From NCBI GenBank assembly GCA_963779845.1, contig CAVZZV010000005.1, positions 879,427 through 943,426 on the forward strand: a DNA stretch of 64,000 nt, given 5' to 3'. Shown piece by piece: positions 16,186 to 41,806 of the stretch (positions are counted from its first letter, which is position 1; every line of letters begins with the position of its first letter). The notes below the pieces were generated by a model. The model searched no databases. It was not told where the DNA came from and worked only from the letters and a program-made list of their open reading frames with translations. The position numbers and the translations under genes are program-made. The stretch is from an uncultured Bacteroidales bacterium (GTDB lineage Bacteria; Bacteroidota; Bacteroidia; Bacteroidales; GCA-2748055).

Positions 16186-16363
16186 GGTGATGGTTTTCTT
16201 GTGAGTTATACTTTTCATTTGAATTAGTTTCGTTTCATCTCTATAAAAGTTCAATGTACCCTTTTCCCGGTTTACCTGCAAGAGCAACTCCCTGAAAATT
16301 TAAAAGTGATGAACCTTTTGGCTCATGAAGGATGACTGTTACCTCCATGGCATTTCCTTGGTT

Positions 16364-17776: not shown

Positions 17777-17937
17777 GATTTACTGTTTTTAGGCCAAACT
17801 ATTGTATATTAATTTCTACTAATTCCTTCATCATTATGAATGAACCGGGGCGCTATATATAATCTCATTTCCATTAGCATTGTTTAACGATTTTATTTTG
17901 GTAATTACTTCTTCATTATCAAGATAATTTTCGGGAA

Positions 17938-19545: not shown

Positions 19546-19588
19546 TCCTGTTTTTTTATTATTAATTCTAACAAATTTAACCATTCCC

Positions 19589-21145
19589 TTACTTTTTTAT
19601 CTTCACTTTTAACATCGTAAATGAATGCGGAGGAAAATTATAATTGAACTTGTTTCCATCCAGTTTGAATGCAGGTTTTTCTTTAGTGAAAACTTGCTTT
19701 TCCCCAAAATTATTTTCTGATTTTATATCAGGCCCATTTACTTCGAATCTCTGAATTTTACCGGTAAATGGACCGTTCTGCGAAATAATATCAGTCGATA
19801 TAGCTTCATCTTTGTTTCGGTTTACTACGCATATAATTACTTCATCATTAAGATAGGTAGCTGATACATCCAGATAAGGTACATCTTTTTGTTGTGTTGT
19901 AATATCGGCCCTTCCAATCGCGAACTTGTCGGTGCTGTATTTCTCACATTTTACAAATACATCCAGGGATAATCCATAAACATTATTCGCAAATAATTCT
20001 AAAGGATAATAAATAGTTTGTTTGAATAATTCTTTATCATTCGTAAAAATTGGTGCTATTACATTTACTAATTGCGCCATATTTGCCATTTTCACAACAT
20101 CAGCATTCCTGATAAAAGAGTTTAGAAAACCGGCAACCACCAGCGCATCTTCCAGATTATAAATCTCTTCTAAACCTTTTACACGTCTGTAACAAACATT
20201 ATATTCATCCCAGGCAATATAAACAGGAGGTCTGTTTGGCCTATTAGCGGTTTGCATGGCTCTTTCAATCATCCCCTTTACAATTCGTGTACGTTGCTCC
20301 ATTACCAAAGGAGTTGAAATATAATTGTAATAATTATTGTCCGGATTCCCGACATATATGTGTAGTGCGATGTAATCGGTTACATCCTTAAGTTCTTCCA
20401 GTATGGTTTGATTCCAATTATCGGGATTGGCACCTGGCCAGTAATTTGATGATCCGGCAGCAATGAGTTTTATTTCAGGAGAAGTTCGCAGCATTAGCTT
20501 TGCCGCTTCGCGAGCTTTTTTCGAATAATCCATCGCATTCATATGCCCCATCTGCCAGGTTCCATCCATTTCATTTCCCAATCCCCAGTATTTAACTTTG
20601 TGCGGTTCCGGATAACCATGTTTTTTGCGCAGTTCAGCATAATAAGGGCCCTCTTTCACATTGCAATATTCCACCCAGCGTCTTGCTTCTTCAATTGTAC
20701 CTGTGCCAAGGTTTACGGCAATGTACGGTTCAGTAGGAACCATTTTAGCAAACTCTATAAATTCATTAGTACCAAAAGTATTAGGTTCCAGAGTATTCCA
20801 GGCCAATTCCATGCGGGGTATTCTTTCAGATTTAGGACCAACGCCATCCAGCCAGTTGTAATTGGAAACAAAATTGCCCCCTGGATATCTAACAATTGTG
20901 GGTTTAATTCCTTTTACTGCTTCCAATACATCTTGTCGAATTCCATTTTCGTCGGATAAGGGATTCCCAGGATCGTAAATTCCTCCATAGACGCAGCGAC
21001 CCAGATGTTCAATAAAATTTCCATAGATATTTTTATCCACCTCACCAATTGTCCGGTCGATATCAATTTTTATTTCTGCATTTTGAGCACTGACTTTTGC
21101 TAAAATTCCTGAAAGGCAAAATATTAAAAAAAATAGTTTCTTCAT
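19589..21145 (-). CDS. GH51-family alpha-L-arabinofuranosidase-like hydrolase
   Basis: 518 aa with a signal peptide. Motifs GNFIEHLGRCVYGGIYDPG, RYPGGNFVSNYNWLDGVGP and WGLGNEMDG (acid/base GNE). Confidence 0.88.
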   Translation of the reverse strand: MKKLFFLIFCLSGILAKVSAQNAEIKIDIDRTIGEVDKNIYGNFIEHLGRCVYGGIYDPGNPLSDENGIRQDVLEAVKGIKPTIVRYPGGNFVSNYNWLDGVGPKSERIPRMELAWNTLEPNTFGTNEFIEFAKMVPTEPYIAVNLGTGTIEEARRWVEYCNVKEGPYYAELRKKHGYPEPHKVKYWGLGNEMDGTWQMGHMNAMDYSKKAREAAKLMLRTSPEIKLIAAGSSNYWPGANPDNWNQTILEELKDVTDYIALHIYVGNPDNNYYNYISTPLVMEQRTRIVKGMIERAMQTANRPNRPPVYIAWDEYNVCYRRVKGLEEIYNLEDALVVAGFLNSFIRNADVVKMANMAQLVNVIAPIFTNDKELFKQTIYYPLELFANNVYGLSLDVFVKCEKYSTDKFAIGRADITTQQKDVPYLDVSATYLNDEVIICVVNRNKDEAISTDIISQNGPFTGKIQRFEVNGPDIKSENNFGEKQVFTKEKPAFKLDGNKFNYNFPPHSFTMLKVKIKK

Positions 21146-21217
21146 GATTTAAATATAAAATTTATACGCTTCCGACATTTTTGTACTATCAAAAATTCAA
21201 ATAGGTTTTTAGGGTAA

Positions 21218-22621
21218 TTACTGGCCCGGCATAGTCCAATTTTTTGGTGGTGTCCATCCTTCCGGTTGAGTTTCTATCTCAAAGTCGGGTGTCATTTTTG
21301 TAAATTCGTTCAATTGAGAATTCAAATTTTCGACAACTTCAGGATATTGTTTTGACACATCATTCTTTTCCCGGATATCCTCTTCAATGAGAAAAAGCTC
21401 TCCTTTATTCATTTTCCATTTTTTGGAAACTATGCCACTATTTCCAAGGAAAATAACGCGATCGGGCAACTCATTTCCCAGAAAAGCCGGAAATACATTG
21501 ATGCCATCAGTTTCTGTAATATTTTTACCTGTAGTGATTTTTTCAAGGGTTGGGAATACATCAATATAAGCAATAAGCTCATTTGTTGAGCTTCCTTCGT
21601 TAATAACTTCAGGCCACTTCACACAAGAAACAACATGTACCCCACCTTCCCATTCCGTATGTTTTTGTCCCCTTAAGGGATAATTATCTCCTCCAAATTT
21701 AGGCATTCCCCCATTATCGCTCAAAAACCAAACAAGAGTATTTTTCTCAACTCCTTTTTCTTTTATTGTCTGCAAAATATTACCGACAGATCTGTCCATT
21801 GCAGAAGCCATAGCAGAAAAAGTCTGTCTTGAAGTATTTCCCCTTCCCTGCATACCATAAACATCAAGGTCAATTTCTCCGGGTTGACTACCCCCAACCG
21901 GATAATCTTCGATCCCGGCATTCGGATCGTACCCATACATTTTCAAATCTTCCTCCTTTGCCTGCATCGGAGAATGAGTGGCATTGAAAGCAACATAGGC
22001 AAAAAATGGCGAATTATTATCAGCATTCTTAATAAATTTCACCACTTCCTTTTCAATAAGATCAGTTGAATAACCTTCCTCCATGCAGGGTTTATTGTCC
22101 CGATGCCAATCTAACTCGCCATCGCGTATATGGGTAAAATAATCTATCGCACCGTTATAATGGCCATAAAAAGAAGTAAATCCCTGATTATTAGGATGAT
22201 ATATATAGTTGGAATGTCCAAGATGCCATTTACCAAAAGCTGCCCGTTCTTTGTAACCTGCTCTTTCAAGCATTTCCGGAATAAATACTTCATCCGGTGG
22301 TATACCTCCGATCAGGGTGGGCATGAATACATAATCACGCAGATTGAAACGGTCGGGGTATTTTCCAGTTATTAAACCTGCTCTTGTTGGGCTGCAAATC
22401 GGGGCTGAATAAAATCTGTTCAATGTAATTCCCTCAGAAGCAAGTTTGTCGATATTGGGCGTTTTAATTTCACTTCCGTGAAACCCAACGTCATTCCAGC
22501 CCAGATCGTCAGCAACAATGATGACAATATTTGGGCGTTCAGAATTTTTATTAGAATTTCCTGTGCATCCTGCCAAAAAAAAGCCGGCCAGCAAACAAGG
22601 AATATTTTTCAATTTAATCAT
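21218..22621 (-). CDS. S1-family sulfatase, arylsulfatase-B-like
   Basis: The ATG at 22619-22621 gives MIKLKNIPCLLAGFFLAGCTG (lipoprotein signal). Motifs VADDLGWNDVGFHG and ICSPTRAGLITGKYP. Confidence 0.9.
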   Translation of the reverse strand: MIKLKNIPCLLAGFFLAGCTGNSNKNSERPNIVIIVADDLGWNDVGFHGSEIKTPNIDKLASEGITLNRFYSAPICSPTRAGLITGKYPDRFNLRDYVFMPTLIGGIPPDEVFIPEMLERAGYKERAAFGKWHLGHSNYIYHPNNQGFTSFYGHYNGAIDYFTHIRDGELDWHRDNKPCMEEGYSTDLIEKEVVKFIKNADNNSPFFAYVAFNATHSPMQAKEEDLKMYGYDPNAGIEDYPVGGSQPGEIDLDVYGMQGRGNTSRQTFSAMASAMDRSVGNILQTIKEKGVEKNTLVWFLSDNGGMPKFGGDNYPLRGQKHTEWEGGVHVVSCVKWPEVINEGSSTNELIAYIDVFPTLEKITTGKNITETDGINVFPAFLGNELPDRVIFLGNSGIVSKKWKMNKGELFLIEEDIREKNDVSKQYPEVVENLNSQLNEFTKMTPDFEIETQPEGWTPPKNWTMPGQ

Positions 22622-22835
22622 GATTTTTATATTATTATGAAGAGAATCTATGCTGACTTTTAATTCCATTTCACATATACTTTCCTTTAATTTTTTAAGT
22701 GAAAATTACCCCCCTTGTCATTGTCAGTTAAAATTACCGGATAAAGTTCTTTTTGGTTCATCCCTTCTATTGGTTTCTTAATATTTATTAAGGTATTAAT
22801 GTTTTATGATACCATTCGGCATACCATCATTTTTT

Positions 22836-24473
22836 TTATTTATTCTTCCTTTTTTGGGAATAGAGTGTTTGTATTGAATCCCAGGGCAAAACATGCATTT
22901 CCTCTGCCCATTCATTGTACATACCTATCATTTCTTTTCGTTTTTCAGGCATTTTCTTAGCGAGATCATGCATTTCAGTACGATCTTGTACCATATCATA
23001 TAACTCCCAATTAGCTTGATTGTCCTCCTGCCATGTCATTACCAATTTATATTTTCCATCTCTTACGGCCTTGTTTCCTTCATGTTCCCAGAATATGGGT
23101 TCTGTATGTACCGGTTTTCTTTCTCCTTTGATAACAGGCAGAAGGCTTTTTCCAACCAAGGGTTTTATTTTATTGCCTTTGTACTCCTGAGGATAGTTTG
23201 CATTTGCCAAATCAACGCAGGTAGCCATTATATCCGGTAAAAATCCGTATTCCTGCACACGCATACCATTGTCCTCTTCCGGTATTCCATCAGGCCAGTG
23301 AACAATAAAAGGAGTTGCAATTCCTCCCTCATGATCCCAGTGCTTATATTCCCTGTAAGGTGTATTGGATGCATTGGCCCAGGCCCGGCCATAAGAGAGA
23401 ATATACCCTTCTTTGGTTCCAAGTTGTTCAGCAGGACCGTTCCCCAGCTCGCTGAATTCAGCGCAGGCTCCATTGTCATTTAAGAACATAATGATGGTAT
23501 TATCTATAATTCCTTTTTCCTCAAGGTAATTCACCAGTTTCCCAATATTCTGATCCATTCTGTCAACCTGGGCAGAATATATGGCTTTACGCAGGTCCAT
23601 TTCGATCTTCTTTTCTTCATCAAGTGAGTTCCAATCTCTCGAATCCTGTGGTGTCAATTCCCAATTCTCATCTATCAAACCCATTTTAATCATATTCTTA
23701 TATCTCTTGAGGCGGAGTTCCTGCCATCCATCCATATAATTCCCTCTATATTTTTCTATATCCTCCTTTGGTGCGTTCAATGGCCAGTGAGGAGCATTAT
23801 ATGCAAGGTACAGGAAGAAGGGTTTTTTGCCTTCCTGCTGAGATTCATCAATAAATTTTATAGCATTTTCAGTAAATGCATCAGTAGTATAATAGTTTTC
23901 ATCTTTGATTGTGATTGTATCATTACCAACAGTAATTCCACGAGGGTATTCCGGCTTAAAATAGTTACAGGCACCTGGAATAATACCATAAAATTTGTCA
24001 AAACCACGCTGTAATGGCCATTTATCCTGAGTAGAAATGCCAAGGTGCCATTTACCGGTCATTAGGGTTGTGTAACCGGCTTCTTTCATAACTTCGGCAA
24101 TTGTTACACAATTTTTATTAATGAATCCTCTGTACTGGGGTATTCCAAGATCATGTTGAGTAAAATCTGCCGGAGTATTGGTCATATGTCCTATACCAGT
24201 CTGGTGAGGATAAATCCCTGTCATCAGGGATGCTCTTGTAGGGCAACATCTGGCCCCATTATAAAATTGCATAAACTGAAGTCCGTTCTTAGCGAGTTTA
24301 TCAAGATTGGGTGTATTGATTTCTCCTCCGTAGCATCCGATATCAGAATATCCCATATCATCCGACAGTATAAGAATAATATTGGGAGTTTCCGGTTCTT
24401 TTGATTCATTGCATCCCATGGTGAGAAAAAGGCATAAAACTGATGTAACAGAAGATGTTAATATACTTTTCAT
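22836..24473 (-). CDS. S1-family sulfatase, arylsulfatase-A/AtsA-like
   Basis: 545 aa with a signal ending in ...LTMGCNES. Motifs ILSDDMGYSDIGCYG and RCCPTRASLMTGIYPHQTG. Confidence 0.92.
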   Translation of the reverse strand: MKSILTSSVTSVLCLFLTMGCNESKEPETPNIILILSDDMGYSDIGCYGGEINTPNLDKLAKNGLQFMQFYNGARCCPTRASLMTGIYPHQTGIGHMTNTPADFTQHDLGIPQYRGFINKNCVTIAEVMKEAGYTTLMTGKWHLGISTQDKWPLQRGFDKFYGIIPGACNYFKPEYPRGITVGNDTITIKDENYYTTDAFTENAIKFIDESQQEGKKPFFLYLAYNAPHWPLNAPKEDIEKYRGNYMDGWQELRLKRYKNMIKMGLIDENWELTPQDSRDWNSLDEEKKIEMDLRKAIYSAQVDRMDQNIGKLVNYLEEKGIIDNTIIMFLNDNGACAEFSELGNGPAEQLGTKEGYILSYGRAWANASNTPYREYKHWDHEGGIATPFIVHWPDGIPEEDNGMRVQEYGFLPDIMATCVDLANANYPQEYKGNKIKPLVGKSLLPVIKGERKPVHTEPIFWEHEGNKAVRDGKYKLVMTWQEDNQANWELYDMVQDRTEMHDLAKKMPEKRKEMIGMYNEWAEEMHVLPWDSIQTLYSQKRKNK

Positions 24474-24555
24474 TGTAATGTAAATTTTGATGAGGTTAGT
24501 CTTTATTTTAATTGGTTTTAAAAAAAATTATATAAATAAACAGGATGTAAATTAT

Positions 24556-24643
24556 ACAGGCTCTGTCCTTCCATCGGGTAGTCCAACCCTGCATCAACAA
24601 TGCCTGCAGCTTCCATACAGGTTGGTACAATTTCAATAAGCTC
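24556..24643 (-). pseudogene. ~90-nt internal relic of an AtsA-like sulfatase gene
   Basis: My translation ELIEIVPTCMEAAGIVDAGLDYPMEGQSL matches ELIDLVPTCMEAAGMVDAGLDYPLEGQSL of the 14521-16185 product. The DNA also aligns with 14860-14950. Nothing else of that gene remains. Confidence 0.75.
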
Positions 24644-26113
24644 TCACTGTTGCAAATTATCATTCCTTATTGGAACCGGCATCGTATGACGCCAGGCAAT
24701 AAGTCTGGAAGACATGTCTTTTACCAGCTCAGGTTCCTGCTCCACAAGGTTTTTAGTTTCTTCAGGATCGATATCAAGATTGAATAGTTGTGCATCAGTA
24801 GAATCAGCATTTATCAAAAGTTTCCATTTTCCTTCCCTCATGGCCAGGTTGGGTGAGATGAAATCGGTGTTGCCAGGTTGTAGGATATTATCACCAGGAT
24901 AACTGTTATACTCCCACATAATAGGATCCTTCACATCCATTGGGGATCCCAGCAAAGCCTGACTTTTGTCCATACCGTCAAGACCCTGTGGCCATTCCAC
25001 TCCAATAATCGAACAGATAGAAGGAAAAAGATCTGTAGCTGCAATGATGGTCTTATCATCCGTTGCACCTTCAGGTATATGGCCTTTCCAGCTTACAATA
25101 AATGGCATTCTAATACCTCCTTCATAAAGGCTCCATTTTCTTCCCTTAAAATTTCCTGCAAATCCCGGAGGATAAAGATTCCCTTCATATCCCTTCGGGT
25201 ATCTATTGGTTTTGTAATAATAGGGCCAGTCTGTAGGACCGTTATCACTGGTAAATATGATGATTGTGCTCTCCAATAATCCCACATCTTCTAAACCTTT
25301 AACAAAACGTCCAATTTGCTTGTCTGTTTCTTCCAATACTGCAAGGAATTTTTGTTGAAAGGGATTGTCGGTTAATGATGAATACTTTTCCTGCATTTCA
25401 GGAGCTGGATTATGAGGGTCGTGCACATCTTTGGGGAATAGATTCACATAAAAGGGCTGATCCTTATGCCGACCAATAAAAGCCAGTGCGCTATCTACAA
25501 ATACCCTTGTTGATTCATACTTTTCACAAAAAACTATTTTTGCCGTAGCTGAATCTGCACCACCTGTTTCGACCTTTGATCCTTCCGGTAAAAGACGGTC
25601 TCCCCAACCAACATGGCTCACAAATGATCTATCGAAGCCATATTCACTTGGAAGCGGTGCATAGGAAAGATCACGACCTCCACCCATATGCCATTTTCCA
25701 AAATGAGCAGTTGCATAACCATTCTGTTGTAATGTTCTGGCAATAGTTGGTGCCGCAGGGTCAAGAAAATCGGCCATACCACGAGCTTTGTTATTATATG
25801 ACCAATTGATATAGGAATGTATTTTGTACCTCATCGGATATTTGCCTGTGTTAATGCCAACTCTTGAAGGCGAGCATATTGGCGAATTCACATAGAAATT
25901 TGTGAATTTAATGCCTTCACTAGCCAATGCATCCATGTTTGGGGTTTTCATAAAAGGATTCCCGAAACATGAAGGATCGGCATAGCCCATATCATCAATG
26001 AAGATGATTACTATGTTAGGTTTCTTGCTTGATCTTTCCCCAGATAGTCCGGTGCAGGATTGTATTATTACAGCCAAATACAATAGCAGCTTGAATCTGA
26101 TAATATTTTTCAT
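24644..26113 (-). CDS. S1-family sulfatase
   Basis: 489 aa with a signal peptide. Motifs FIDDMGYADPSCFG and ICSPSRVGINTGKYP. Paralog of 42551-43954. Confidence 0.92.
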   Translation of the reverse strand: MKNIIRFKLLLYLAVIIQSCTGLSGERSSKKPNIVIIFIDDMGYADPSCFGNPFMKTPNMDALASEGIKFTNFYVNSPICSPSRVGINTGKYPMRYKIHSYINWSYNNKARGMADFLDPAAPTIARTLQQNGYATAHFGKWHMGGGRDLSYAPLPSEYGFDRSFVSHVGWGDRLLPEGSKVETGGADSATAKIVFCEKYESTRVFVDSALAFIGRHKDQPFYVNLFPKDVHDPHNPAPEMQEKYSSLTDNPFQQKFLAVLEETDKQIGRFVKGLEDVGLLESTIIIFTSDNGPTDWPYYYKTNRYPKGYEGNLYPPGFAGNFKGRKWSLYEGGIRMPFIVSWKGHIPEGATDDKTIIAATDLFPSICSIIGVEWPQGLDGMDKSQALLGSPMDVKDPIMWEYNSYPGDNILQPGNTDFISPNLAMREGKWKLLINADSTDAQLFNLDIDPEETKNLVEQEPELVKDMSSRLIAWRHTMPVPIRNDNLQQ

Positions 26114-26762: not shown

Positions 26763-28253
26763 CTATTGGTACCCCGGATTCTGCTCCAAACTTCCGTTGG
26801 AGGCAGCAATTTCATTATTTGGGATAGGTAAAAGCACATGATAATCCTCTATATTCTCTCTCGGTATTGCTAAAATTGGAGAAGTAGAATTCCGGATTGT
26901 CTCCACAAATATTCCCCAACGAAGCAAATCATATCTACGATGACCCTCAAAACTTAATTCAGTCGCTCTTTCTTTTCTGATAGCAAGCCGAAAATCCTCC
27001 TTACTTAATCCGGAAAGGTTTGTTATTCCTGCACGTTCCCGAACCAAATTAATAAATTGATAAGCATTGGCCGGGCCATTCAATTCATTTTCAGCCTCTG
27101 CGCGCATTAAAAGCACATCAGCATATCGAACTACATATTGATTATTCGCACTATTAAAAGGAATTGGCAAAACACCGGATTCCGGATTATGATATTTGCC
27201 ACTTATAGGACCTGCTCCCGGTGTTGTAGTTGACACAAGCACCCATCCATTTACCGTAGTTACAAAACTTATTGCAAGCCTCTTGTCACCAGGTTCAAAC
27301 CAATCCCCAAAATCGGGAAGGGGCATTATGTTTTCAAAACCCCCGTAATGATTAGTGTTTCCTCCAATTCTTTTATCACGCGACCCGGTTTGTTGGGTAG
27401 TTGTATTTCCTCTTTCGTCAAAAGCAAATTGTACATCCCAAATATTTTCGTTTACCAATGCGCCATCTTTATCAGGAAATAATTGGTGCTCATTTTGCCA
27501 TCCAAACAATTTGTTATAATCAGCAATAAGGCCAAATTTTCCTGAATTAATTATGGCATCACATTGTTGAATAGCCAACGCCCATTTTTTTTCTGTTAAA
27601 TATGCTTGTGCCAGAATTCCTGCAGCAGTCCATTTGGTAACTCTCCCTTTTTCTGCATCACCATATGAGTCCGGTAAGTCAGGAAAAGCCTCAAGCAAAT
27701 CCTTTTCAATGAGCGCATAAACTTCAGTGACTGGTGAACGGGTTATACCTTCAAGTGCTCCTGCTCCATCCAGTACTTTATCAACAATAGGCACATCTCC
27801 ATATTTTCTAACAAGTCCAAAATAATAATAAGCACGCAAAACTTTTGCCTCAGCTACCAATCTTTTTTGAAGCGTTTTATCTATTTCTTCAATTAAAGGG
27901 ATATAGGCAATTGCCGTATTACATCTGGAAACGCCACCATAAGCTTCCTGCCATAATGAATTACAATCATCATTAAATCCATTGAGCCCAACAAAGTAGG
28001 TTAACGGCCGTTTGTTATGAAAACCCTGGAATGAGAAATCACTGGGTACAACCGAAACATAATACTCCCTTGGACTGGTGAATAATTTTGAATATGCAGC
28101 AGTAGTTGCAGCAATAGCATCTTTCTCAGTTTTCGGAAAATTCTCAGGTGATAAAAAACTTTGAGGATTTTCGGTAAGTATGTCTTCGCAAGAAGGTAAT
28201 ACAATGCTGGTTAGAAAACCAGCAATTATTAATATTTTAAATGAATTTTTCAT
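26763..28253 (-). CDS. SusD/RagB-family outer-membrane glycan-binding lipoprotein
   Basis: The ATG at 28251-28253 gives MKNSFKILIIAGFLTSIVLPSCED (lipoprotein box). The TPR-like SusD pattern is present (LRAYYYFGLVRKYGDVP, RYADVLLMRAEAENEL, ERATELSFEGHRRYDLLRW). It lies directly downstream of susC. Confidence 0.9.
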   Translation of the reverse strand: MKNSFKILIIAGFLTSIVLPSCEDILTENPQSFLSPENFPKTEKDAIAATTAAYSKLFTSPREYYVSVVPSDFSFQGFHNKRPLTYFVGLNGFNDDCNSLWQEAYGGVSRCNTAIAYIPLIEEIDKTLQKRLVAEAKVLRAYYYFGLVRKYGDVPIVDKVLDGAGALEGITRSPVTEVYALIEKDLLEAFPDLPDSYGDAEKGRVTKWTAAGILAQAYLTEKKWALAIQQCDAIINSGKFGLIADYNKLFGWQNEHQLFPDKDGALVNENIWDVQFAFDERGNTTTQQTGSRDKRIGGNTNHYGGFENIMPLPDFGDWFEPGDKRLAISFVTTVNGWVLVSTTTPGAGPISGKYHNPESGVLPIPFNSANNQYVVRYADVLLMRAEAENELNGPANAYQFINLVRERAGITNLSGLSKEDFRLAIRKERATELSFEGHRRYDLLRWGIFVETIRNSTSPILAIPRENIEDYHVLLPIPNNEIAASNGSLEQNPGYQ

Positions 28254-28272
28254 AATCAAAAATTTTAGTGTT

Positions 28273-28690
28273 TTAGAAATCAAGCTTTACTCCAACGGTA
28301 TAGGATTTTAAAGTTGGGTCCTGAGAATGATCATACCCTCTTTTGGTATTATCAATACCCCTGCTAATTTCAGGATCATACCCGCTATAGCTATCAAATA
28401 ATAACACATTATTTCCGGCAATGTAAAGCTGGACTGATTGTAACCAATTTATTTTTTGAATCGGAAGGTTATACGATAATCGAATATCCTGTAATCTTAA
28501 AAAAGAACCATCTTCGACAAAACCTGAATTTGATACATTCATTGGTCTTGTAAATCCATCTACCGATGGAATATTTGTAGAGGTATTATCAGGTGTCCAT
28601 CGGTTAACAAATTTTCTGTAAACGTTATTATCTAAAGCTTGCTCAAGTAAACGACCTGATTCATTATATATTTCGTTACCATACTACAAA
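28273..28690 (-). pseudogene. Detached 3' end of the SusC-like gene (out of frame with 28676-31588)
   Basis: The frame reads GNEIYNESGRLLEQALDNNVYRKFVNRWTPDNTSTNIP...SGFVEDGSFLRLQDIRLSYNLP...YTVGVKLDF*. These are the canonical last beta-strands of a SusC barrel, ending in F. Confidence 0.8.
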
Positions 28691-31588
28691 TGAGAAATAT
28701 ATATACAAATCAAATGCTTTGTATGTAAATCTATTACTCAGTCCACCAAAAAAATCAGGGTCAGCATACCCAATAATTTTACGATCCAGGGTTTCGCTAA
28801 TAACTTTATCACCATCTATATCTTTATACCTTTTACCTCCGGGAAATACTGCAAAACCTGTTAAACCCGATTCATCAATCTCTTCCTGGGTATTCCAGAT
28901 TCCCTCCATTTCCAATCCATAAAAAGTACCAATGGGCTCCCCTTCCTTAATTATACCAGATGCTCCACTCCAGGTAAAACTATTATTGAGTATATATCCT
29001 TCAGGTGCAATAATACTTACAATTTCATTTTTATTTGTAGAAATATTAAAATTGGTTATCCATCTAAAATCCCTACTATTAATATTTGTAGAAGTTAGGG
29101 AAAACTCGAAACCTTTGTTGGAAACTGTTCCGAAGTTAGTTAGTACAGATTCGAAACTAGTTAGCCACAATAGTGGGACATCAACCAGTAAATCCTTGGT
29201 TAATTTATCGTAGTAGTCAGCAGTGATTTGCAATCGATTATTAAAAAACCCCGCATCAATTCCAACATCAAACTGGGTTGTACTTTCCCATTTAAGATCA
29301 GGATTTCCCAAGGTATTGGCAGCAATTCCCGATACCAGGTGCTGATCCACACCAAAAATGTAATTATTGCCTCCCGGGGCTAATTTCGTTAAGGAAGCAC
29401 CTGGGTCAAGACCCGGGTTTCCTAATACCCCATAACTAGCTCTAAACTTTAAGTTGTCAAAAATGTTAAGGTTTTTAATAAATTCTTCATTTCCAGCTTT
29501 CCATGCAATTGCTGCAGAAGGAAAAAGTCCCCATTTATTATTGGCGGCAAATACAGATGCTCCGTCCATTCTTGCTGATACAGTTAAAAGATATTTATTG
29601 GATAATCCGTAGTTGGACCTGAAAATAAAGGATTCCAGACCACTATTCGTTAAATTCGAATTGGCATCAGACCTTTCTGCTGCTGCAGCTAAATTATTAA
29701 ACGTAAACGCATCTGATACAAAGCCTCTTGCCTGAACCAAATTAGATTTCGATTCTATGGTCTGTCTGGTATATCCAAATAATCCGCTAATGTTGTGTTC
29801 TCCAAATGTTTTAGAATAATTTAAAGTATTTTCAATAATCAGATCCAGGGTTTCGTTATTGTTTATGGTTGCTGTACCCTGATAATTTTGTTGATCATAT
29901 AAAGTTGAGGGGTCATACCTGTTCCGGGTACCATTTTGTAAATTTGCTCCAACATTCAACTTATATGTCAATCCATCAATAATTTCATATTCACCAAAAA
30001 TGGTTCCCAGAAGTTTATTAGTTGTGGTAATATCTATGGGTAATTCAGAGAGGGCAACCGGATTATCACTACTCAGTTCTGCTAATTGAATTTGTTGAGT
30101 ATAATTGCCCTCCTCGTCATAAACAGGTAACGTTGGATCCCAGCCTATCAAATTTTTTATCCCAATTCCAAATGAACCCGGAGTATAATTTCTTCTGCTA
30201 ACAATTAATGAATTCCCTAATTTAAGCTTATCAGATATCTTATGATCAGTATTTATTTGAAAGTTATAACGCTCAAGGCCGCTATTAATAGATATACCTT
30301 GCTGATCAAAATAGTTTCCCGACAGGAAATAGGTATGTTTATTATCCCCTCCTGATATGGATAAGTTATGGCTGGTCATGGGCACGTTTTCACGATACAC
30401 TTCCTTTGCCCAATTGGTACCTTCTCCATAAGAATCCGGATTTGGATACATCTCTGAACCCTTTGTTTCATTTTGAAAAGCGGCAAATTCACTTGCGTTC
30501 ATTACAGGGATATACCTGGAGGGAGACTGGAATGAAATATAAGAATCATAAGAAATTCTTGTTTTCCCTTCTTTTCCTCTTTTTGTGGTAATTAAAATTA
30601 CCCCGTTTGAACCTCTTGACCCATAAATTGCTGTTGCAGAGGCATCTTTCAATACTTCTATAGATTCAATGTTATTCATATTTACATCATTCAAACTAAA
30701 ACCTCCGATATATCCGTCAATAACATACAAGGGTTCATTATTAGCTGAGATTGAGTTACTACCCCTGATTCTGATTGAAGTTTGTGCACCTGGATCTGAA
30801 GAAGTTGGTATAGCCTGTAATCCAGCAATTTTCCCTTTTAATGCCTGATCCACGCGAAGTACATTAGTAGAATTTAACTCCTCCGTCTTGATTGATCCAA
30901 CGGATCCGGTTATATCACTTTTTCTAACTGTTCCATAACCAATAGCAACCACCTCATCTAATCCAATAGCATCGGCAACCAGTGAAACATCAATGGTGGT
31001 TTGATTGCCAACTGCTACTTCCTGCGTTGACATTCCCACAAACGAAAATACCAATGTGGCATTTTCAGGAACATCCTCGAAGGAGTACTTCCCCTCCATA
31101 TTGGTAACCGTACCATTGGAGGTTCCTTTAAGAACAATTGATACCCCTGGCAGCGGTTGGCCATATTCATCGGTAACGGTTCCGGAAATGGATTTTTGCT
31201 GGAGTTTACCTTCTGATTTTATATCACTGGCATCCATTATAACTACATACCGATCAATAACTTCGTATCGAACTTTTTCAGGAAGTGTATTATCCAGAAT
31301 TTCTTCCACTGTCTTATTCTTTACATCAAGAGTTACTTTCTGATTCGGATCGAGTTTTGAACTCGAGAAGGCAAATCTGAACTCTGTTTGATTTTCAATT
31401 TTCTGAAACATCTGCTGATAGGTTATTTCAGTGAATTTTAAAGTGAGTTTGGTACTCTGTGAGTAAATACTCGCAGAAACCATCACGGTTGGGAACAATA
31501 AAATGAAAGTAGTTAGTTTCATAATTTTTACAATTCTTCGAAACAGAGAACGCTCATCCCCTGTTAGGAAAGGGTTTCTTTTTTTCAT
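28676..31588 (-). CDS. SusC/RagA-family TonB-dependent transducer (STN domain), interrupted by one frameshift near the 3' end
   Basis: The ATG at 31586-31588 gives MKKRNPFLTGDERSLF. An STN signalling domain follows (LKFTEITYQQMFQKIENQTEFRFAF...VRYEVIDRYVVIM). Then come a CarboxypepD_reg-like region (ISGTVTDEYGQPLPGVSIVL), the TonB box/plug (DEVVAIGYGT) and the barrel. The frame stops at ...DLYIYFSFVVW*, where paralogs read ...GVYGN. Confidence 0.88.
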   Translation of the reverse strand: MKKRNPFLTGDERSLFRRIVKIMKLTTFILLFPTVMVSASIYSQSTKLTLKFTEITYQQMFQKIENQTEFRFAFSSSKLDPNQKVTLDVKNKTVEEILDNTLPEKVRYEVIDRYVVIMDASDIKSEGKLQQKSISGTVTDEYGQPLPGVSIVLKGTSNGTVTNMEGKYSFEDVPENATLVFSFVGMSTQEVAVGNQTTIDVSLVADAIGLDEVVAIGYGTVRKSDITGSVGSIKTEELNSTNVLRVDQALKGKIAGLQAIPTSSDPGAQTSIRIRGSNSISANNEPLYVIDGYIGGFSLNDVNMNNIESIEVLKDASATAIYGSRGSNGVILITTKRGKEGKTRISYDSYISFQSPSRYIPVMNASEFAAFQNETKGSEMYPNPDSYGEGTNWAKEVYRENVPMTSHNLSISGGDNKHTYFLSGNYFDQQGISINSGLERYNFQINTDHKISDKLKLGNSLIVSRRNYTPGSFGIGIKNLIGWDPTLPVYDEEGNYTQQIQLAELSSDNPVALSELPIDITTTNKLLGTIFGEYEIIDGLTYKLNVGANLQNGTRNRYDPSTLYDQQNYQGTATINNNETLDLIIENTLNYSKTFGEHNISGLFGYTRQTIESKSNLVQARGFVSDAFTFNNLAAAAERSDANSNLTNSGLESFIFRSNYGLSNKYLLTVSARMDGASVFAANNKWGLFPSAAIAWKAGNEEFIKNLNIFDNLKFRASYGVLGNPGLDPGASLTKLAPGGNNYIFGVDQHLVSGIAANTLGNPDLKWESTTQFDVGIDAGFFNNRLQITADYYDKLTKDLLVDVPLLWLTSFESVLTNFGTVSNKGFEFSLTSTNINSRDFRWITNFNISTNKNEIVSIIAPEGYILNNSFTWSGASGIIKEGEPIGTFYGLEMEGIWNTQEEIDESGLTGFAVFPGGKRYKDIDGDKVISETLDRKIIGYADPDFFGGLSNRFTYKAFDLYIYFSFVVW

Positions 31589-31617
31589 AAATTTGCATGT
31601 TTTAGTTAATAAAATTG
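30940..31617. repeat. Dispersed repeat: susC leader plus STN/N-terminal extension (partner 40990-41683)
   Basis: Near-colinear nucleotide similarity by eye (about 85-90 percent). It runs from the DEVVAIGYGT-encoding box to 29 nt upstream of the susC ATG. Confidence 0.8.
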
Positions 31618-31679
31618 ATTCAATTTTCCGGGCATCGTCGGTTGCAACGACTTTGCCCGTTTTTATTTTCATTCATCCT

Positions 31680-32642
31680 TTATACATTTAATTTTTTGAT
31701 TTTCACATCCTTTCCCTCAAACCTGTAAACAAAACCATTTGCTTTTGCAATTACCTTAAGAATGGTTTCAAGCGATTCGTATTCTTCAAACTGAACCGTG
31801 AGTGTCTCTGAGTTAAATAATAGAGGATCATATTCTATATTTATGTCATACCATTTTTCGAGCCTCGTAATAACCTCATCGAAAGGGGTTAAACGGAATA
31901 TCAGTTGATCATTTTTCCATGCCAACTCAAGATTCTTATCAAAAGAATTAATCTCACTCGAGGAGGTGTTTTTATTATAAACCAGTTGCTGGCCAGGTTG
32001 TAATAGTTCATCTTCCCTTCCAATTTTCACATCAACAGAACCTTTAATCAGCGATGATTTAATCTTCGAACTCTCCGGATAAGCTGAAACAATAAACCGG
32101 GTACCTAAAGCTGTTGTAACTAAATTGCCTGAAGCCACTTCAAAAGGCAATTCCTGGTTTTTCACCACCTCAAAATAAGCCTCCCCTTCCACTTCAATCT
32201 TTCTGGACTTTACTCCATAGTCTACCGGATAACTCAATTTAGTATCTACATTTAGCCATACTTTTGAACCATCGGGGAGTATTACGCTGGTTTGTTCTCC
32301 TTTTTGAGTAGTAAGCACAAGCATCCCCCTGGCAACAGTTTGGCTGGTATAAAGATAGAGTGCAGCGGCAAGCAGGGGTAAAAACAATATTGCTGCTGCC
32401 CTAACCAAAACTATAAAGAAGCGATTCCTTACTGAGATTATAACCGAATTTCTGATTTTTTCCCGTATCTGTTCAAACTTTAATGCCACACTTTCATTTT
32501 GACTCTGTTGCCAGTTTGCTTCCAGCCAGGTAAAAATTTCTTTTTTATGGTGGATATTATTGAAATATTTATCCAATGAGTTTAACTCATCGTTTGTTAA
32601 TCTCTTCCCGGAAAGAAATTTGCTGATTAGGTTCTCCTGCAT
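31680..32642 (-). CDS. FecR-family anti-sigma factor
   Basis: The track start is GTG. The ATG at 32640-32642 gives MQENLISKFLSGKRLT. There is a single TM segment (FFIVLVRAAAILFLPLLAAALYLY). A FecR/DUF4974-like periplasmic part follows (LIFRLTPFDEVITRLEKWYDINIEYD). It lies immediately upstream of an STN-bearing susC. Confidence 0.88.
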   Translation of the reverse strand: MQENLISKFLSGKRLTNDELNSLDKYFNNIHHKKEIFTWLEANWQQSQNESVALKFEQIREKIRNSVIISVRNRFFIVLVRAAAILFLPLLAAALYLYTSQTVARGMLVLTTQKGEQTSVILPDGSKVWLNVDTKLSYPVDYGVKSRKIEVEGEAYFEVVKNQELPFEVASGNLVTTALGTRFIVSAYPESSKIKSSLIKGSVDVKIGREDELLQPGQQLVYNKNTSSSEINSFDKNLELAWKNDQLIFRLTPFDEVITRLEKWYDINIEYDPLLFNSETLTVQFEEYESLETILKVIAKANGFVYRFEGKDVKIKKLNV

Positions 32643-32716
32643 TCTTATCACTCTAAATTCATTAATTTTGTGTTCAAACCTATATACGTTTGAAAATAAA
32701 CTTTCCGTGACCGGGG
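32619..32716. repeat. Dispersed repeat: first 7 fecR codons plus ~75 nt upstream leader (partner 41681-41777)
   Basis: TTGCTGATTAGGTTCTCCTGCATTCTT...TATATACGTTTGAAAAT.AACTTTCCGTGACCGGGG is present at both places with few mismatches. Confidence 0.8.
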
Positions 32717-32857: not shown

Positions 32858-34057
32858 TTACTTTTTCAGTAATTTCATCCCAAAGCCAGGAGCATCGGAT
32901 ACCCTTAGCTTGCCATTAATAATTGGATATTCTCCAAAATCAACATCATCAGAGAGACAGGTAACACCTTCAATGGTGCATACATTGCCAAGTCCGGCTG
33001 AAAGATGAGCATTGTAATTGGTTTTAAAACGGCTACCCCAGGAATGCGGACTTGCAAGCATATTGATTTTTTTGAGTTCAGGCATCAGCTTCATCCATTT
33101 CGTAAACCCATATCCTATTGTGTCTGCAAGCATTACATCCATCACTTGTTCCTTTCCCAATTCCAGACAAACATCATAATCGGGATCACGTTCACCGTCA
33201 GCATAATAGGTGTTTTCAAAGCCATTGTTGTTCATCCATCTTTTTAATTTTCGACCGGCCTCCAGCTCTTCAAAAAAAGGTTCTTCCATCCAATACAATG
33301 GAACTTCTTGAATTCCCGTTAAAAAGCTTATTGTATCCTCTAAACTATATTTGTCGTTAGCATCAACTAAAACTTTTGTATTTCGGTCTTTAAATGTATT
33401 ATGAACCAGATTAACAACCTCAATATCTTTTTCAAGTCCCTCTTTATGGGGATACCACATACCACTACGCCCGATTTTAACTTTTAACTGGCGGTACCCA
33501 TAATTATAATCCCACTCGCAATTTTCCAGAATTACATCCAAACCTTTGGTTTCATTTCCCGGATTTAGTTCGTCCAGATAGATCATTCCACTGTAAATGA
33601 GAGTTTCTCTGGGTCCCTGATTGCCAATTAATTCATATACAGGCTTATTCAAAATAAGCCCCATTAAATCGTGTAGCGCAATATCCACCCGGCTATCCAA
33701 GGTATCAATAATACCAATACCCGGGGTGATCAGCTCAGAGACTTTTTTATTAAGGATTAAAGGAATAATCTTGTCGGCATTTTTACTAGATACACCCCAG
33801 GCCATTGCTCCCTGATCGGTATATAGTTTTAAAACGGTGTTTTTATGATATTGGCCATGAAAATCCAGTCTGGAATTTTTCCCCACAAATCGTGGCCAAT
33901 GAAACTCAACTTCCGCTAACTCGTATTTATCAATCCTATGTTCCCCAAGTTCCTTAATTTGACGTTCTATTTTTGATGAGCATGACCAAAGAGTCGGAAC
34001 TAAAGTGCTGCCTGCCAGAGCTGCTCCTGATAATTTAATAAAGTTACTTCGTTTCAT
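32858..34057 (-). CDS. Enolase-superfamily (mandelate racemase/muconate-lactonizing-type) enzyme with an N-terminal export signal
   Basis: 399 aa. Motifs LKVKIGR (K-x-K), LVDANDKY, WMEEPF and ADGE (three metal ligands), plus LADT...SPHSWG (D/H dyad). The N-terminus MKRSNFIKLSGAALAGSTLVPTLWSCSS is Tat-like/lipoprotein-like. Confidence 0.8.
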   Translation of the reverse strand: MKRSNFIKLSGAALAGSTLVPTLWSCSSKIERQIKELGEHRIDKYELAEVEFHWPRFVGKNSRLDFHGQYHKNTVLKLYTDQGAMAWGVSSKNADKIIPLILNKKVSELITPGIGIIDTLDSRVDIALHDLMGLILNKPVYELIGNQGPRETLIYSGMIYLDELNPGNETKGLDVILENCEWDYNYGYRQLKVKIGRSGMWYPHKEGLEKDIEVVNLVHNTFKDRNTKVLVDANDKYSLEDTISFLTGIQEVPLYWMEEPFFEELEAGRKLKRWMNNNGFENTYYADGERDPDYDVCLELGKEQVMDVMLADTIGYGFTKWMKLMPELKKINMLASPHSWGSRFKTNYNAHLSAGLGNVCTIEGVTCLSDDVDFGEYPIINGKLRVSDAPGFGMKLLKK

Positions 34058-34099: not shown

Positions 34100-36394
34100 T
34101 TAATATTCAAAAACCGCTGCATCAAGCAACTCAATATTTGCCTTTTTATTCGTTGCAATAGTAATTGTATTCTCACCTATTCTCAGGTAATTCATTTCTT
34201 CATCAAAAAGCACATAAAAGTTTATACTCGGTTCTCCGAATCTTGCATCAAGCTTTGTTTTCCTAAATGCATTTCCATTTATTTTAATTTCACTGTCAGT
34301 AAATCCTTTAATAGCCACAGTTGTATTGGCCGGAAGTTTTTCAAGTTCAAATGTTTTGCTAACAGTTATTGGACCTGTAATTTCTGTATTTATGCCGATG
34401 AAATCATTTTTTTCACCAAAAGGGAGATGCACGTTTCTTCCTGTTTCCGATTTCCAAACCGAAGCAAAATCAATTATTGGTTTTAAATCCGGAGCCATAT
34501 AAATGGTTTTATTGATGGCTTTAATATCTTCAATCGGTATTTTAGAAACTTTGCGATCATAGGTTAAATATCCGTTCAGTTCATGCTCCACATCCGTTAT
34601 TTGAGTATAGACTAACCCATTACAACCACTTCCGGCATTTAGACAACGTACAGTTTCAATGAACTTTCGATAGGCATCTTCAAAAATCTCTGGTGTACTA
34701 TAGGTATGTCTTCCGGTCTCTTCAGTGAAACTGTAGCTATCTTTTGGTATAAAATTGTTATGCCCTTTTTGCTCGGGAGGATTTGATTCTGAATACCAAG
34801 TATGCCCGGGTATTGCCAGATTTATTCCTGCCGCTTCACCAATTAACAGTGCTCGTTCTCCATTTAGTTTATAGTCCGCCCCATTATTTCTTGGATAAAA
34901 AGTGTAATCATGCACATCCATTACATCCCCAAAAGCTTCATCGGTCCAACCACTTGCGCAGTTAATAATCCGTGTTGAGTCGTAATTTTTTATCCAGTTT
35001 GTATAAAATCCCGTATTATGCTGGCTCCAGCCTTCATTGAATACAATCCACATTACAATAGAAGGATGGTTGTGCAACCAATCGACCATGGACTTAAATT
35101 CTGTATGCCATTGTTTAGCAGCAGCATCGTCAATGGTTTGTCCATATTTAGGCATGCAGGTCATATCCTGCCATACAAGAAGTCCTAGTTTATCAGCCCA
35201 ATAGTACCAACGATCAGGATGAGTTTTAATATGGACCCGAACCATATTACAACCTATTTTTTTAAGGTATTCGAGATCGAATTTTATTGCCTCTTCCGAA
35301 GGAGGTGTTAAACCTCCATTTGGCCAATATCCCTGATCTAGAGGGCCATACTGAAAAATCGGCTCATTGTTTAAATGAATTCTTCTATAACCATCAGCAG
35401 CGGTTTTAACCTCAATTTTTCGCATTCCAAAATAGCTGCTTACTTCATCTATAACTTTTCCATCCCTTTTCAAAATAACTTTCAGATCGTACAAAAATGG
35501 ATTTTCGGGACTCCAGGCTTTAAATTCCTGAATAGGAATCATTAATTCTTCTCCACTAATTGCAGCCTTTTCTGCCACCAAACTACTTCCATCAAATACC
35601 TGAACTAATAATTCAGATTTACCCGATGTAAGGCTTGTATTTAGTTTAACCGCTGCATTATCGAAATCGGGAGTAATCTTAATATTTTCAATTGAATTTT
35701 CGGGAACCGGTTCAATCCATACCGTTTTCCAAATTCCACCAGTAGGCTGATATCGGAAACCTTGTCGGTTTTCAGGCATAATCTGCTTTCCAATAGCCTG
35801 ACTCTGCCCTTCAGTAGCGTCCCAAACACAAACACTTATTGTATTTTTTCCTGAAACTAAAAAATCTGTAATATTAAAAGTAAAAGGGTCATATCCACCT
35901 CGATGTTGTCCAACTCTTTTCTGGTTTACATATATACTTGTTTCCCAATCGCTGGCTTCCAAATGGAGTAAAATATTTTGTTTATCCCATTTTCCGGGAA
36001 TAGAAAATTCTTTCTGGTACCATAATACCTGATTAGACCTTAAAATTTTTCCAACACCCGACAATGGCGCATCGATAGCAAAAGGAACCAAAATTTTTCC
36101 TTCCCATTCATAAGGAATCTCTCGTGTAGTCCAACTTTTTTCTTTTGTTAAGCCCTGCAGGGGCTCGAATTCATTGGACTCAAGCTTATAATCCCATAAA
36201 CCGTTAAGATTCATCCACTCATCACGAACCATTTGTGGGCGAGGATATTCAGGCAAAGCTTCATTAGGGTTGACTTGTTCGGCAAATTCCGTTTGCAAGG
36301 GTGAGGGTGCCATTTTGAAATCCACCGTATTTGAACATCCTAAAATAAAAAAACCCAGAAAGGCAGATAAAATAGTTAAATTAAAAATTCTCAT
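34100..36394 (-). CDS. GH2-family glycoside hydrolase
   Basis: 764 aa. Lipoprotein signal LGFFILGCSN. GH2 sugar-binding domain pattern (NGLWDYKL, ILLHLEASDWETSIYVNQKRVGQHRGGYDPFTFNITD). The TIM barrel carries WIVFNEGW. Confidence 0.85.
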   Translation of the reverse strand: MRIFNLTILSAFLGFFILGCSNTVDFKMAPSPLQTEFAEQVNPNEALPEYPRPQMVRDEWMNLNGLWDYKLESNEFEPLQGLTKEKSWTTREIPYEWEGKILVPFAIDAPLSGVGKILRSNQVLWYQKEFSIPGKWDKQNILLHLEASDWETSIYVNQKRVGQHRGGYDPFTFNITDFLVSGKNTISVCVWDATEGQSQAIGKQIMPENRQGFRYQPTGGIWKTVWIEPVPENSIENIKITPDFDNAAVKLNTSLTSGKSELLVQVFDGSSLVAEKAAISGEELMIPIQEFKAWSPENPFLYDLKVILKRDGKVIDEVSSYFGMRKIEVKTAADGYRRIHLNNEPIFQYGPLDQGYWPNGGLTPPSEEAIKFDLEYLKKIGCNMVRVHIKTHPDRWYYWADKLGLLVWQDMTCMPKYGQTIDDAAAKQWHTEFKSMVDWLHNHPSIVMWIVFNEGWSQHNTGFYTNWIKNYDSTRIINCASGWTDEAFGDVMDVHDYTFYPRNNGADYKLNGERALLIGEAAGINLAIPGHTWYSESNPPEQKGHNNFIPKDSYSFTEETGRHTYSTPEIFEDAYRKFIETVRCLNAGSGCNGLVYTQITDVEHELNGYLTYDRKVSKIPIEDIKAINKTIYMAPDLKPIIDFASVWKSETGRNVHLPFGEKNDFIGINTEITGPITVSKTFELEKLPANTTVAIKGFTDSEIKINGNAFRKTKLDARFGEPSINFYVLFDEEMNYLRIGENTITIATNKKANIELLDAAVFEY

Positions 36395-36610
36395 AAGTTA
36401 AAATTATAAGTTGTTTAAATTTTCTTTGATTCAATTCTTTTGTTAATCCCTATTGTCTTAACCCACTATAACCTGGACAATATTATAAAAATGGTTCAGT
36501 ACTTCCTTATTTTCAATTAAAATGCACTGCCTTCCACATAGCAGTAGGTTATTGCAAAGAAATAATTTTAAAATTCGCACAGATCGGCTGGAAAACTCAC
36601 CCCAAAAGGA

Positions 36611-36665
36611 TTAGAGAAAAAGAAGTAGAGATTTAATCTCCATGATTGATTAAAACTCTACTTCT
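36611..36665 (-). terminator. Extended hairpin terminator after the decayed susD
   Basis: AGAAGTAGAG (36621-36630) pairs with CTCTACTTCT (36656-36665). An inner TTAATC/GATTAA helix extends the stem. It is followed on the minus strand by TTTTCTC. Confidence 0.5.
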
Positions 36666-36718
36666 CTTAAAAGCTTAAAACATGTTATGCTCCAATCCAA
36701 TATCTCCAATAATACCCA

Positions 36719-38214: not shown

Positions 38215-38221
38215 TTTAGTT

Positions 38222-41654: not shown

Positions 41655-41777
41655 AAATTTGCGTGTTTTAGTTAATAAAATTGCTGATTAGGTTCTCCTG
41701 CATTCTTTTCACACTTCATTCATTAATTTTGTGTTCTGACCTATATACGTTTGAAAATGAACTTTCCGTGACCGGGG
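40990..41777. repeat. Dispersed repeat partner of 30940-31617 plus 32619-32716, with fecR deleted between them
   Basis: See the L1 copies. The junction ...GTTAATAAAATTG|CTGATTAGG... is at 41677-41690. Confidence 0.8.
41681..41703 (-). pseudogene. Seven-codon 5' stump of a deleted fecR gene
   Basis: The minus strand reads ATGCAGGAGAACCTAATCAGCAA (MQENLIS), identical to the start of 31680-32642. It is fused directly to the susC leader. Confidence 0.8.
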
Positions 41778-41806
41778 TTGTGATGTTAAATCCACAGGGC
41801 AAGTTT

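Follow-up and report, generated by a model that had tools for sequence, protein, structure and literature searches.

A GalurD-like enolase-superfamily enzyme with a conserved export signal in a sulfatase-rich polysaccharide utilization locus of a Bacteroidales bacterium

To our knowledge, all characterised acid-sugar enzymes of the enolase superfamily are cytoplasmic. Enzymes of the type represented by the 3,6-anhydro-D-galactonate cycloisomerase of Zobellia galactanivorans (PDB 5OLC) are mandelate-racemase-type proteins encoded in marine Bacteroidota polysaccharide loci; they have no signal peptide and act late in their pathway, in the cytoplasm. D-Galacturonate dehydratase (GalurD) converts D-galacturonate to 5-keto-4-deoxy-galacturonate. 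GalurD from Geobacillus sp. Y412MC10 (PDB 3N4F/3OPS/3P3B/3QPE/3VCC/3V5C), also cytoplasmic, belongs to a pectin or hexuronate operon setting, and of the papers found only PMC6353982 mentions it, citing the Groninger-Poe 2014 thesis for the Geobacillus and Microscilla enzymes. The subject of this report is a relative of GalurD from an uncultured Bacteroidales bacterium, encoded on a 64,000-nucleotide (64-kb) stretch of contig CAVZZV010000005.1 (assembly GCA_963779845.1) that we call the window. The gene (32858..34057, minus strand, coordinates including the stop codon) specifies a 399-residue protein with an N-terminal export signal and, unlike that of GalurD, lies in a sulfatase-rich polysaccharide utilization locus (PUL).

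We favor a reading in which this protein is a periplasmic, probably lipid-anchored, Mg-dependent hexuronate dehydratase of the GalurD branch, which carries a degenerate signal of the twin-arginine translocation (Tat) type and takes as its substrate uronate released by neighbouring exo-enzymes. We put the probability of this reading at roughly 55%. In the literature on the enolase superfamily or mandelate racemase in connection with Tat, signal peptides, PULs, sulfatases or the periplasm, we found no exported member described, which agrees with an earlier sequence-based note on this DNA (the original prediction) that called such a location and role essentially undescribed. Where these subjects did appear together, it was in reference lists or in unrelated passages. 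Sequence comparisons point to an exported clade that is real, widespread and apparently undescribed, and to a function that is plausible.

Fold, catalytic residues and nearest relative

The full mandelate-racemase-type catalytic set claimed for this protein is present, and every motif quoted for it was found: KVK at residues 192-194, VDANDKY at 231-237, WMEEPF at 256-261 (with E258 and E259), ADGE at 286-289, LADT at 310-313 and SPHSW at 336-340. A homolog search over 5.8 billion proteins returned 1098 homologs at E<1e-10. The seven catalytic residues (K192, K194, D232, E258, E289, D312 and H338; codon positions checked) are invariant in 113 full-length homologs, far beyond what chance would give.

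The two-domain fold of the superfamily, an alpha+beta capping domain and a modified (beta/alpha)7beta barrel, is borne out by the AlphaFold2 (AF2) model, by Foldseek and by a match to the Pfam domain MR_MLE_C (E=4e-24). The model has a pLDDT of 92.7, with low confidence over residues 1-30 and a confident chain from about residue 31. The capping domain (33623..33943, minus strand; approximately residues 39-145) includes the conserved loop HWPRFVGKN (residues 53-61) and H67, and aligns with GalurD residue 11 onward; its residues R56, N61 and H67 are family-invariant and identical in GalurD. The modified TIM-barrel domain (32963..33610, minus strand; approximately residues 150-365) carries K192-V-K194 at strand 2, the metal ligands D232, E258 and E289 at the ends of strands 3, 4 and 5, and the H338-D312 dyad at strands 7 and 6. 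The three metal ligands align with those of GalurD.

GalurD is by a wide margin the nearest characterised relative, by sequence and by fold alike. Its phmmer E-value is 1.7e-38, the next match standing at 5e-11. At a cut-off of E<=1e-3, Foldseek gave 577 matches in the PDB, of which the top 50 are all enolase-superfamily proteins and the top 14 all GalurD chains (E about 1e-34, TM-score 0.83-0.90, root-mean-square deviation 2.4 Å). The second-best fold group is that of the Z. galactanivorans cycloisomerase (Foldseek E 4e-23, TM-score 0.68; phmmer 9e-09). NCBIfam gave only weak, far sub-threshold matches, spread over arabinonate, gluconate/galactonate, talarate and rhamnonate dehydratases, so the protein is a divergent member of the superfamily. 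By all the sequence and structure criteria of the mandelate-racemase subgroup it is a member whose nearest characterised relative is GalurD, and Mg-dependent abstraction of a proton alpha to a carboxylate is predicted for it. A plasmid search for the Microscilla enzyme found none and matched an ortholog on a Spirosoma oryzicola plasmid instead.

Besides the seven catalytic residues, 14 family-invariant positions (R56, N61, H67, D130, Y155, Y160, R197, N234, Y237, E259, E263, D287, H351 and E363) are identical in GalurD, giving the shared pattern KKDEEDH plus RNHDYYRNYEEDHE, although these 14 were picked for their conservation, which makes the comparison partly circular. The same 14 are also identical in nearly all representatives clustered at 50% identity, and the capping loops of the window protein are similar in length to those of GalurD. 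These likenesses are suggestive of the same chemistry as that of GalurD on a similar small substrate. They go against the part of the original prediction that had the enzyme act on uronate residues within oligosaccharides, since GalurD, to which 21 positions are identical and the loop lengths similar, is a monosaccharide enzyme.

The substrate might instead be a different acid sugar, an aldonate or aldarate such as L-rhamnonate, L-arabinonate, L-fuconate or galactarate, or the reaction might be an epimerisation or cycloisomerisation rather than uronate dehydration. This would suit the scatter of the weak NCBIfam matches, the low identity to GalurD, the wealth of rhamnosidase and arabinofuranosidases in the PUL, and the name 'D-galactarolactone cycloisomerase' that some database sources give to homologs. 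We think it unlikely. An aldonate substrate would call for an oxidase in the periplasm, which the window does not show; the E-value of GalurD is over 25 orders of magnitude better than that of any other characterised member, and its TM-score about 0.15 higher; and the compared conserved positions are those of GalurD.

The N-terminal signal and the route of export

The N-terminus quoted in the original prediction, MKRSNFIKLSGAALAGSTLVPTLWSCSS, is present in the protein. Residues 1-25 (33983..34057, minus strand) make up the signal peptide, with the n-region MKRSNFIK, the weakly hydrophobic h-region LSGAALAGSTLV and the c-region PTLWS. GalurD has no such extension, its alignment starting at residue 39 of the window protein; in carrying a signal, the window protein departs from the cytoplasmic character implied for the GalurD family. 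The start codon is forced, because an in-frame stop lies three codons upstream of it and the only other ATG, GTG or TTG codons within the first 100, GTG58 and ATG85, lie inside conserved domain sequence, where initiation would remove invariant domain residues. A cytoplasmic product from a later start codon was ruled out on that ground. The original prediction had held that a usable downstream start, or orthologs uniformly without the extension, would speak against a signal; there is no such start, and the extension is kept in nearly all relatives.

Nearly all full-length members of the 120 best matches start with M-x-R-[R/K/S]-x-F-[LI]-K, continue with an uncharged Gly/Ala/Ser/Thr-rich stretch, and end in xWA|S or a lipobox-like L-[AS]-S-C. 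Across 75 aligned sequences R3 never changes and F6 shows at least 90% conservation, while the rest of the signal varies freely. The family's canonical motif is MKRRxF[LI]K, and a TatP-type pattern fits 70 of the 113 homologs. Counted by motif position, 69 of these have RR at the twin-arginine site, 20 RK and 13 RS, with a few RN, RD, RT, RG or RQ; a looser count gives 72 RR and 41 non-RR. With a looser pattern, RR is also present at 61 of 79 species-level genome loci. Isolates that carry it include Haloferula sargassicola, H. luteola, Rhodopirellula sallentina, Runella limosa, Fibrisoma montanum and Spirosoma spp., as well as cultured Flagellimonas. Conservation of this kind gives good support to an export function for the N-terminus, which is unusual for an enzyme of this superfamily.

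That the N-terminus is no signal at all, and the protein an ordinary cytoplasmic enzyme, is very improbable. Signal-less relatives do occur in the wider family, and a cytoplasmic location would match that of the characterised acid-sugar enzymes. Against it stand the lack of an alternative start codon, the RR/F-L-K motif, uncharged h-region and AxA or lipobox end kept across phyla, the low AF2 confidence over an extension that precedes a confident domain, and the placement of the gene among exported enzymes.

The original prediction read the window signal as a degenerate KR twin-arginine core. A Tat-type signal holds for the family, but alignment to orthologs (for example P0002, MKRRNFFK) places Ser4 of K-R-S-N-F-I-K at the position of the second Arg, directly after R3, which makes the window copy an RS variant. 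It is not a correctly spaced KR variant, because K2-R3 stands one residue too far from F-I-K. Correctly spaced KR variants are found elsewhere in the family, in Maribacter (MEKREFIK) and in a Catalimonadaceae strain. Algibacter amylolyticus supplies the nearest ortholog from an isolate (77% identical), and its N-terminus follows the layout of the window copy, MKRSQFIK...LWSCSS. The clade that shares 60% identity or more with the window protein has 19 RR, 15 RK and 12 RS members.

The hydrophobicity of the signal, scored as the best 12-residue Kyte-Doolittle window, sets this protein apart from its neighbours. All other exported proteins of the window have short, strongly hydrophobic signals of the general secretory (Sec) or lipoprotein type. 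The h-region of the enolase-family protein scores 1.49, compared with 2.69±0.39 (minimum 2.03) for the 25 Sec or lipoprotein signals of the window, which is about 3 standard deviations lower. A shift from Tat to Sec visible as raised h-region hydrophobicity in non-RR orthologs was looked for and rejected: scores are 1.50±0.21 for RR orthologs and 1.45±0.28 for the non-RR ones (p=0.23), so loss of the second Arg has not been accompanied by a rise toward Sec-like values. Two adjacent basic residues are kept in 36 of the 41 non-RR signals.

The window copy and the RS/RK clade may have switched to Sec, in which case the same enzyme would cross the membrane unfolded and fold with periplasmic Mg2+. 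The second Arg is gone in 41-44 of the 113 homologs, and these are concentrated in the clade with 60% or higher identity to the window copy. Two distant representatives (P0133 and P0140) carry plainly Sec-type hydrophobic signals, a sign that the fold can be exported by Sec, and Mg2+ is the sole need of the enzyme, with no cofactor to be assembled in the cytoplasm. Curated Tat models also leave the window signal unreported. We nevertheless judge a switch somewhat unlikely, given that the non-RR h-regions are no more hydrophobic than the RR ones and well below the Sec signals of this organism, that R3 and F-[LI]-K are still under selection, and that the adjacent basic pair is retained. The claim of a Tat-like signal is accordingly best divided. 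Canonical signals in most orthologs make the Tat route well supported for the family; for the window copy, a Tat-like h-region on one side and a missing second Arg with no curated match on the other leave the route about even.

Cys26 (33980..33982, minus strand; codon checked) would occupy position +1 of a candidate lipobox, L-W-S-C. The S25|C26 junction also matches the signal-peptidase-I-type site xWA|S of orthologs, and cleavage between these two residues is predicted under either peptidase. Lipidation of Cys26 is plausible because L-W-S-C fits the 13 lipoboxes of the window itself, in which -1 is G, S or N and -2 varies. LWSCSS also occurs in the A. amylolyticus ortholog. Of the 113 homologs, 37 have a Cys in a setting that loosely resembles a lipobox (x-x-[GSAT]-C), some of them doubtful, and clear L-[AST]-[SG]-C sites are fewer. 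Of the periplasmic or surface location originally proposed, the exported part is upheld by the conserved signal. We consider a surface-exposed lipoprotein unlikely, because no acidic stretch follows Cys26 (the next residues are SSKIER), whereas the surface-export signal described for Bacteroidota lipoproteins is acidic.

Tat-exported oxidoreductases of the Gfo/Idh/MocA family offer a parallel. They too are a cytoplasm-type sugar-modifying family with Tat signals, sometimes with a lipobox, found beside exported glycosidases, and examples lie near enolase homologs at locus L014 (matched by Pfam TAT_signal) and at the Spirosoma locus L016 (MSRKGFLQ...AASC, an RK variant). They differ from the window enzyme in having an unrelated fold and catalysing NAD(P)-dependent oxidation. 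Their use of Tat is explained by a cofactor loaded in the cytoplasm, whereas the enolase-family enzyme needs only Mg2+. The L016 oxidoreductase (3158-3300; Spirosoma oryzicola plasmid NZ_CP089540.1) starts ...MSRKGFLQAAGQVVAVGVAGGLAASC, the RK variant being followed by a lipobox, and lies 9 kb from the enolase ortholog. This suggests that non-RR Tat-type signals in Bacteroidota are not confined to the enolase family.

The locus and its counterparts in other species

The PUL context claimed for the gene was borne out, with FecR, SusC, SusD, 12 sulfatase, GH2, GH106, GH43 and GH51-like genes found; by Pfam, the window has a SusC/SusD pair together with co-oriented enzymes and a regulator. Directly upstream of the enolase-family gene, across a 42-bp gap, is a GH2 glycosidase lipoprotein (34100..36394, minus strand; Pfam GH2 domains), whose top matches in the PDB are 7sf2, 9j6n (beta-D-galactofuranosidase 2) and 7xyr (beta-glucuronidase). 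Downstream lies the PUL core (26763..32651), which Pfam resolves into a FecR anti-sigma factor (31680-32651), a SusC-like TonB-dependent transporter with an STN domain (28676-31672) and a SusD-like protein (26763-28283), all on the minus strand. Beyond SusD, a run of enzymes with Sec or lipoprotein signals (14521..26113, minus strand, Pfam) includes sulfatases at 14521-16287, 16364-17776, 21218-22669, 22836-24473 and 24644-26113 and a GH51-like arabinofuranosidase at 19589-21145. The window as a whole holds three GH51-like enzymes, a GH106, a GH43 and a second SusC/SusD pair, and an extracytoplasmic function (ECF) sigma factor is encoded at 41807-42367.

Some features of the window stand apart from the enzyme itself. 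Sulfatase genes are packed very densely, with 12 of the S1 type in 64 kb; they begin at 2155, 4254, 5677, 7131, 8593, 14521, 16364, 21218, 22836, 24644, 42551 and 62270, and both SusC/SusD pairs of the window are intact. C-terminal sorting domains of the type IX secretion system occur in two proteins (1088-1981 and 52342-54417). Two minus-strand proteins with signal peptides, of 808 residues (10744-13170) and 548 residues (17938-19584), have no Pfam match at 1e-5; lying within the sulfatase and glycoside hydrolase array, both may be glycan-active enzymes of an uncharacterised kind. Between the ECF sigma factor and the GH2 gene, positions 36395-41800 (minus strand) hold a decayed transport and regulatory module, with fragments of SusD (36719-37378), a TonB barrel (38860-39360) and a Plug domain (40213-40992), alongside some 15 further short open reading frames. 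Because all other genes of the window are intact, this module suggests an older FecR/SusC/SusD set that has been pseudogenised, not a sequencing error.

When 1.84 billion representatives were scanned, 643 relatives came up, of which 73 had E-values below 1e-30. These relatives are a mosaic of proteins with Tat signals, with Sec signals and with no signal. In a neighbour-joining tree the exported clade of the window protein is nested among signal-less relatives, and GalurD falls in a signal-less clade. A profile scan of species genomes placed relatives in at least 569 genomes of Bacteroidota, Verrucomicrobiota, Planctomycetota and Lentisphaerales, plus one Chloroflexia metagenome-assembled genome (MAG). 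Two orthologs 54-67% identical to the Bacteroidota protein sit in Firmicutes or Chloroflexi bins. The one on a 2.3-kb contig labelled as an Oscillospiraceae MAG (L004) looks like a binning contaminant; the one in the Chloroflexia MAG (L040) lies on a 1.5-Mb contig with a sulfatase upstream and a GH106 downstream, and could be a real transfer. A Cyclobacteriaceae MAG (L081) has a second enolase-family paralog on the opposite strand, about 5.6 kb from the main match, so some genomes hold tandem or duplicated copies.

In other species, too, the gene keeps company with sulfated-glycan enzymes. The counts that follow come from BLAST comparison of the neighbouring genes with a small reference set and are therefore underestimates. 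A sulfatase is directly adjacent on the same strand in at least 23 of the de-duplicated loci listed, upstream of the gene in 19 of those, and sulfatases lie within 10 kb in 34 of 67 loci of at least 12 kb (a few of which are duplicate records). A GH2 of the same subfamily as that in the window adjoins the enolase-family gene at about 11 loci; species with such a neighbour are Algibacter, Spirosoma and about ten others. One Bacteroidaceae locus has a GH115 directly upstream of the gene and a GH88 nearby, and GH39, GH43, GH127 and GH106 recur near it. A single conserved sulfatase partner was ruled out, as the adjacent sulfatases come from at least five unrelated subfamilies; with no single partner enzyme, the association is with sulfated-glycan breakdown in general. 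A gene for aldose 1-epimerase (mutarotase) adjoins the GH2/enolase pair in two loci of Flavobacteriaceae, those of Algibacter (L001, 6797-7990) and Maribacter (L061), which hints that interconversion of anomers or ring forms of the released sugar matters for the next step.

Proposed reaction and what it would mean

In the reading that we favor, the degenerate signal, with R-S in place of R-R, would carry the protein, probably already folded, across the inner membrane. After cleavage before Cys26, a lipid tether would hold the enzyme facing the periplasm. Mg2+ would be bound by D232, E258 and E289, with K192/K194 and/or H338-D312 as general bases. From a free hexuronate (glucuronate, galacturonate or iduronate) the enzyme would take H5, the proton alpha to the carboxylate, and would eliminate the 4-OH, yielding 5-keto-4-deoxy-uronate. 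The hexuronate would be supplied by exo-enzymes in the periplasm, the GH2 in this organism and GH115, GH88 and sulfatases in other species, and the parent glycan would be a sulfated one containing rhamnose and arabinose.

All three of these uronates give the same product, which is also that of the route through polysaccharide lyases and GH88/GH105. The hydrolytic and lytic routes would therefore converge before uptake, and this convergence may be the physiological role of the enzyme. The lyases and GH88/GH105 perform the same net chemistry as predicted here, H5 abstraction and C4 elimination, with the same expected periplasmic product. Their folds are unrelated, though, and the lyases cut glycosidic bonds in polymers, whereas the window enzyme is predicted to dehydrate a free monosaccharide.

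The enzyme could itself be a periplasmic beta-eliminase, in effect a lyase outside the polysaccharide lyase (PL) families, one that acts on a uronate, terminal or free, by removing a C4 substituent other than OH (4-O-methyl, 4-O-sulfate or a sugar linked at that position) and yields a 4,5-unsaturated or 5-keto-4-deoxy uronate. Abstraction of H5 and elimination of a leaving group at C4 is what GalurD already does; the periplasm is where 4-substituted uronates occur; and the gene repeatedly adjoins sulfatases (23 loci), GH115, which releases (4-O-methyl)glucuronate, and GH88. We regard such an activity as quite unlikely, since a monosaccharide dehydratase has the same residues at the compared positions, three of which lie in capping-domain loops, no loop deletion that would open a cleft is evident, and the adjacent sulfatases are heterogeneous. 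It is a long shot that all exported GalurD-like proteins of the clade form a new class of uronate beta-eliminases, periplasmic and with an enolase fold, that strip such C4 substituents (the sugar being, for instance, rhamnose) from terminal or free uronates of sulfated algal or plant glycans. If true, this would account for the close pairing with sulfatases, GH115 and GH88 and for the entry of 4-O-substituted uronates into metabolism, and it would place a lyase activity outside all PL families.

Several observations weigh against a Tat-exported, lipid-anchored hexuronate dehydratase. An identity of 27% to GalurD does not allow specificity to be safely transferred, and the circularity of the 14-position comparison has been mentioned. 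The window signal departs from the Tat consensus S/T-R-R-x-F-L-K, to which most orthologs conform, by its change of the second Arg to Ser; studies in E. coli found that Arg important, and export of the window copy could be inefficient or proceed via Sec. Neither Pfam TAT_signal (PF10518) nor any NCBIfam Tat-signal model matches the window protein. PF10518 matches only 6 of 75 family members at E<=0.5, and being a short, weak model it decides nothing. Several close orthologs lack Cys26 and have xWA|S instead. As to the substrate, the subfamily of the adjacent GH2 includes a beta-D-galactofuranosidase, so that uronate as its product is not established; uronate-catabolic genes (kduI, kduD, kdgK) and an obvious uronate transporter are all missing from the window; and the diversity of the adjacent sulfatases leaves no single conserved partner reaction.

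Enolase-superfamily acid-sugar enzymes are usually treated as cytoplasmic and late in their pathways, and here a whole clade carries Tat-type or lipoprotein signals. GalurD itself is known, as far as the cited passage goes, just from a thesis and PDB entries, and the basic activity of its branch is under-explored. Among the phyla that carry the exported enzyme, Bacteroidota, Verrucomicrobiota and Planctomycetota are the main degraders of sulfated marine glycans. The RR, RK, RS and KR variants within one orthologous family are natural material for testing how strict the twin-arginine requirement is in these phyla. If the enzyme is periplasmic, a folded protein needing only Mg would join the list of Tat substrates. 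In this seaweed-sugar-degrading cluster, acid-sugar chemistry probably takes place outside the cytoplasm; monosaccharide-level steps would then precede uptake, and reconstructions of PUL pathways and their transporters would change.

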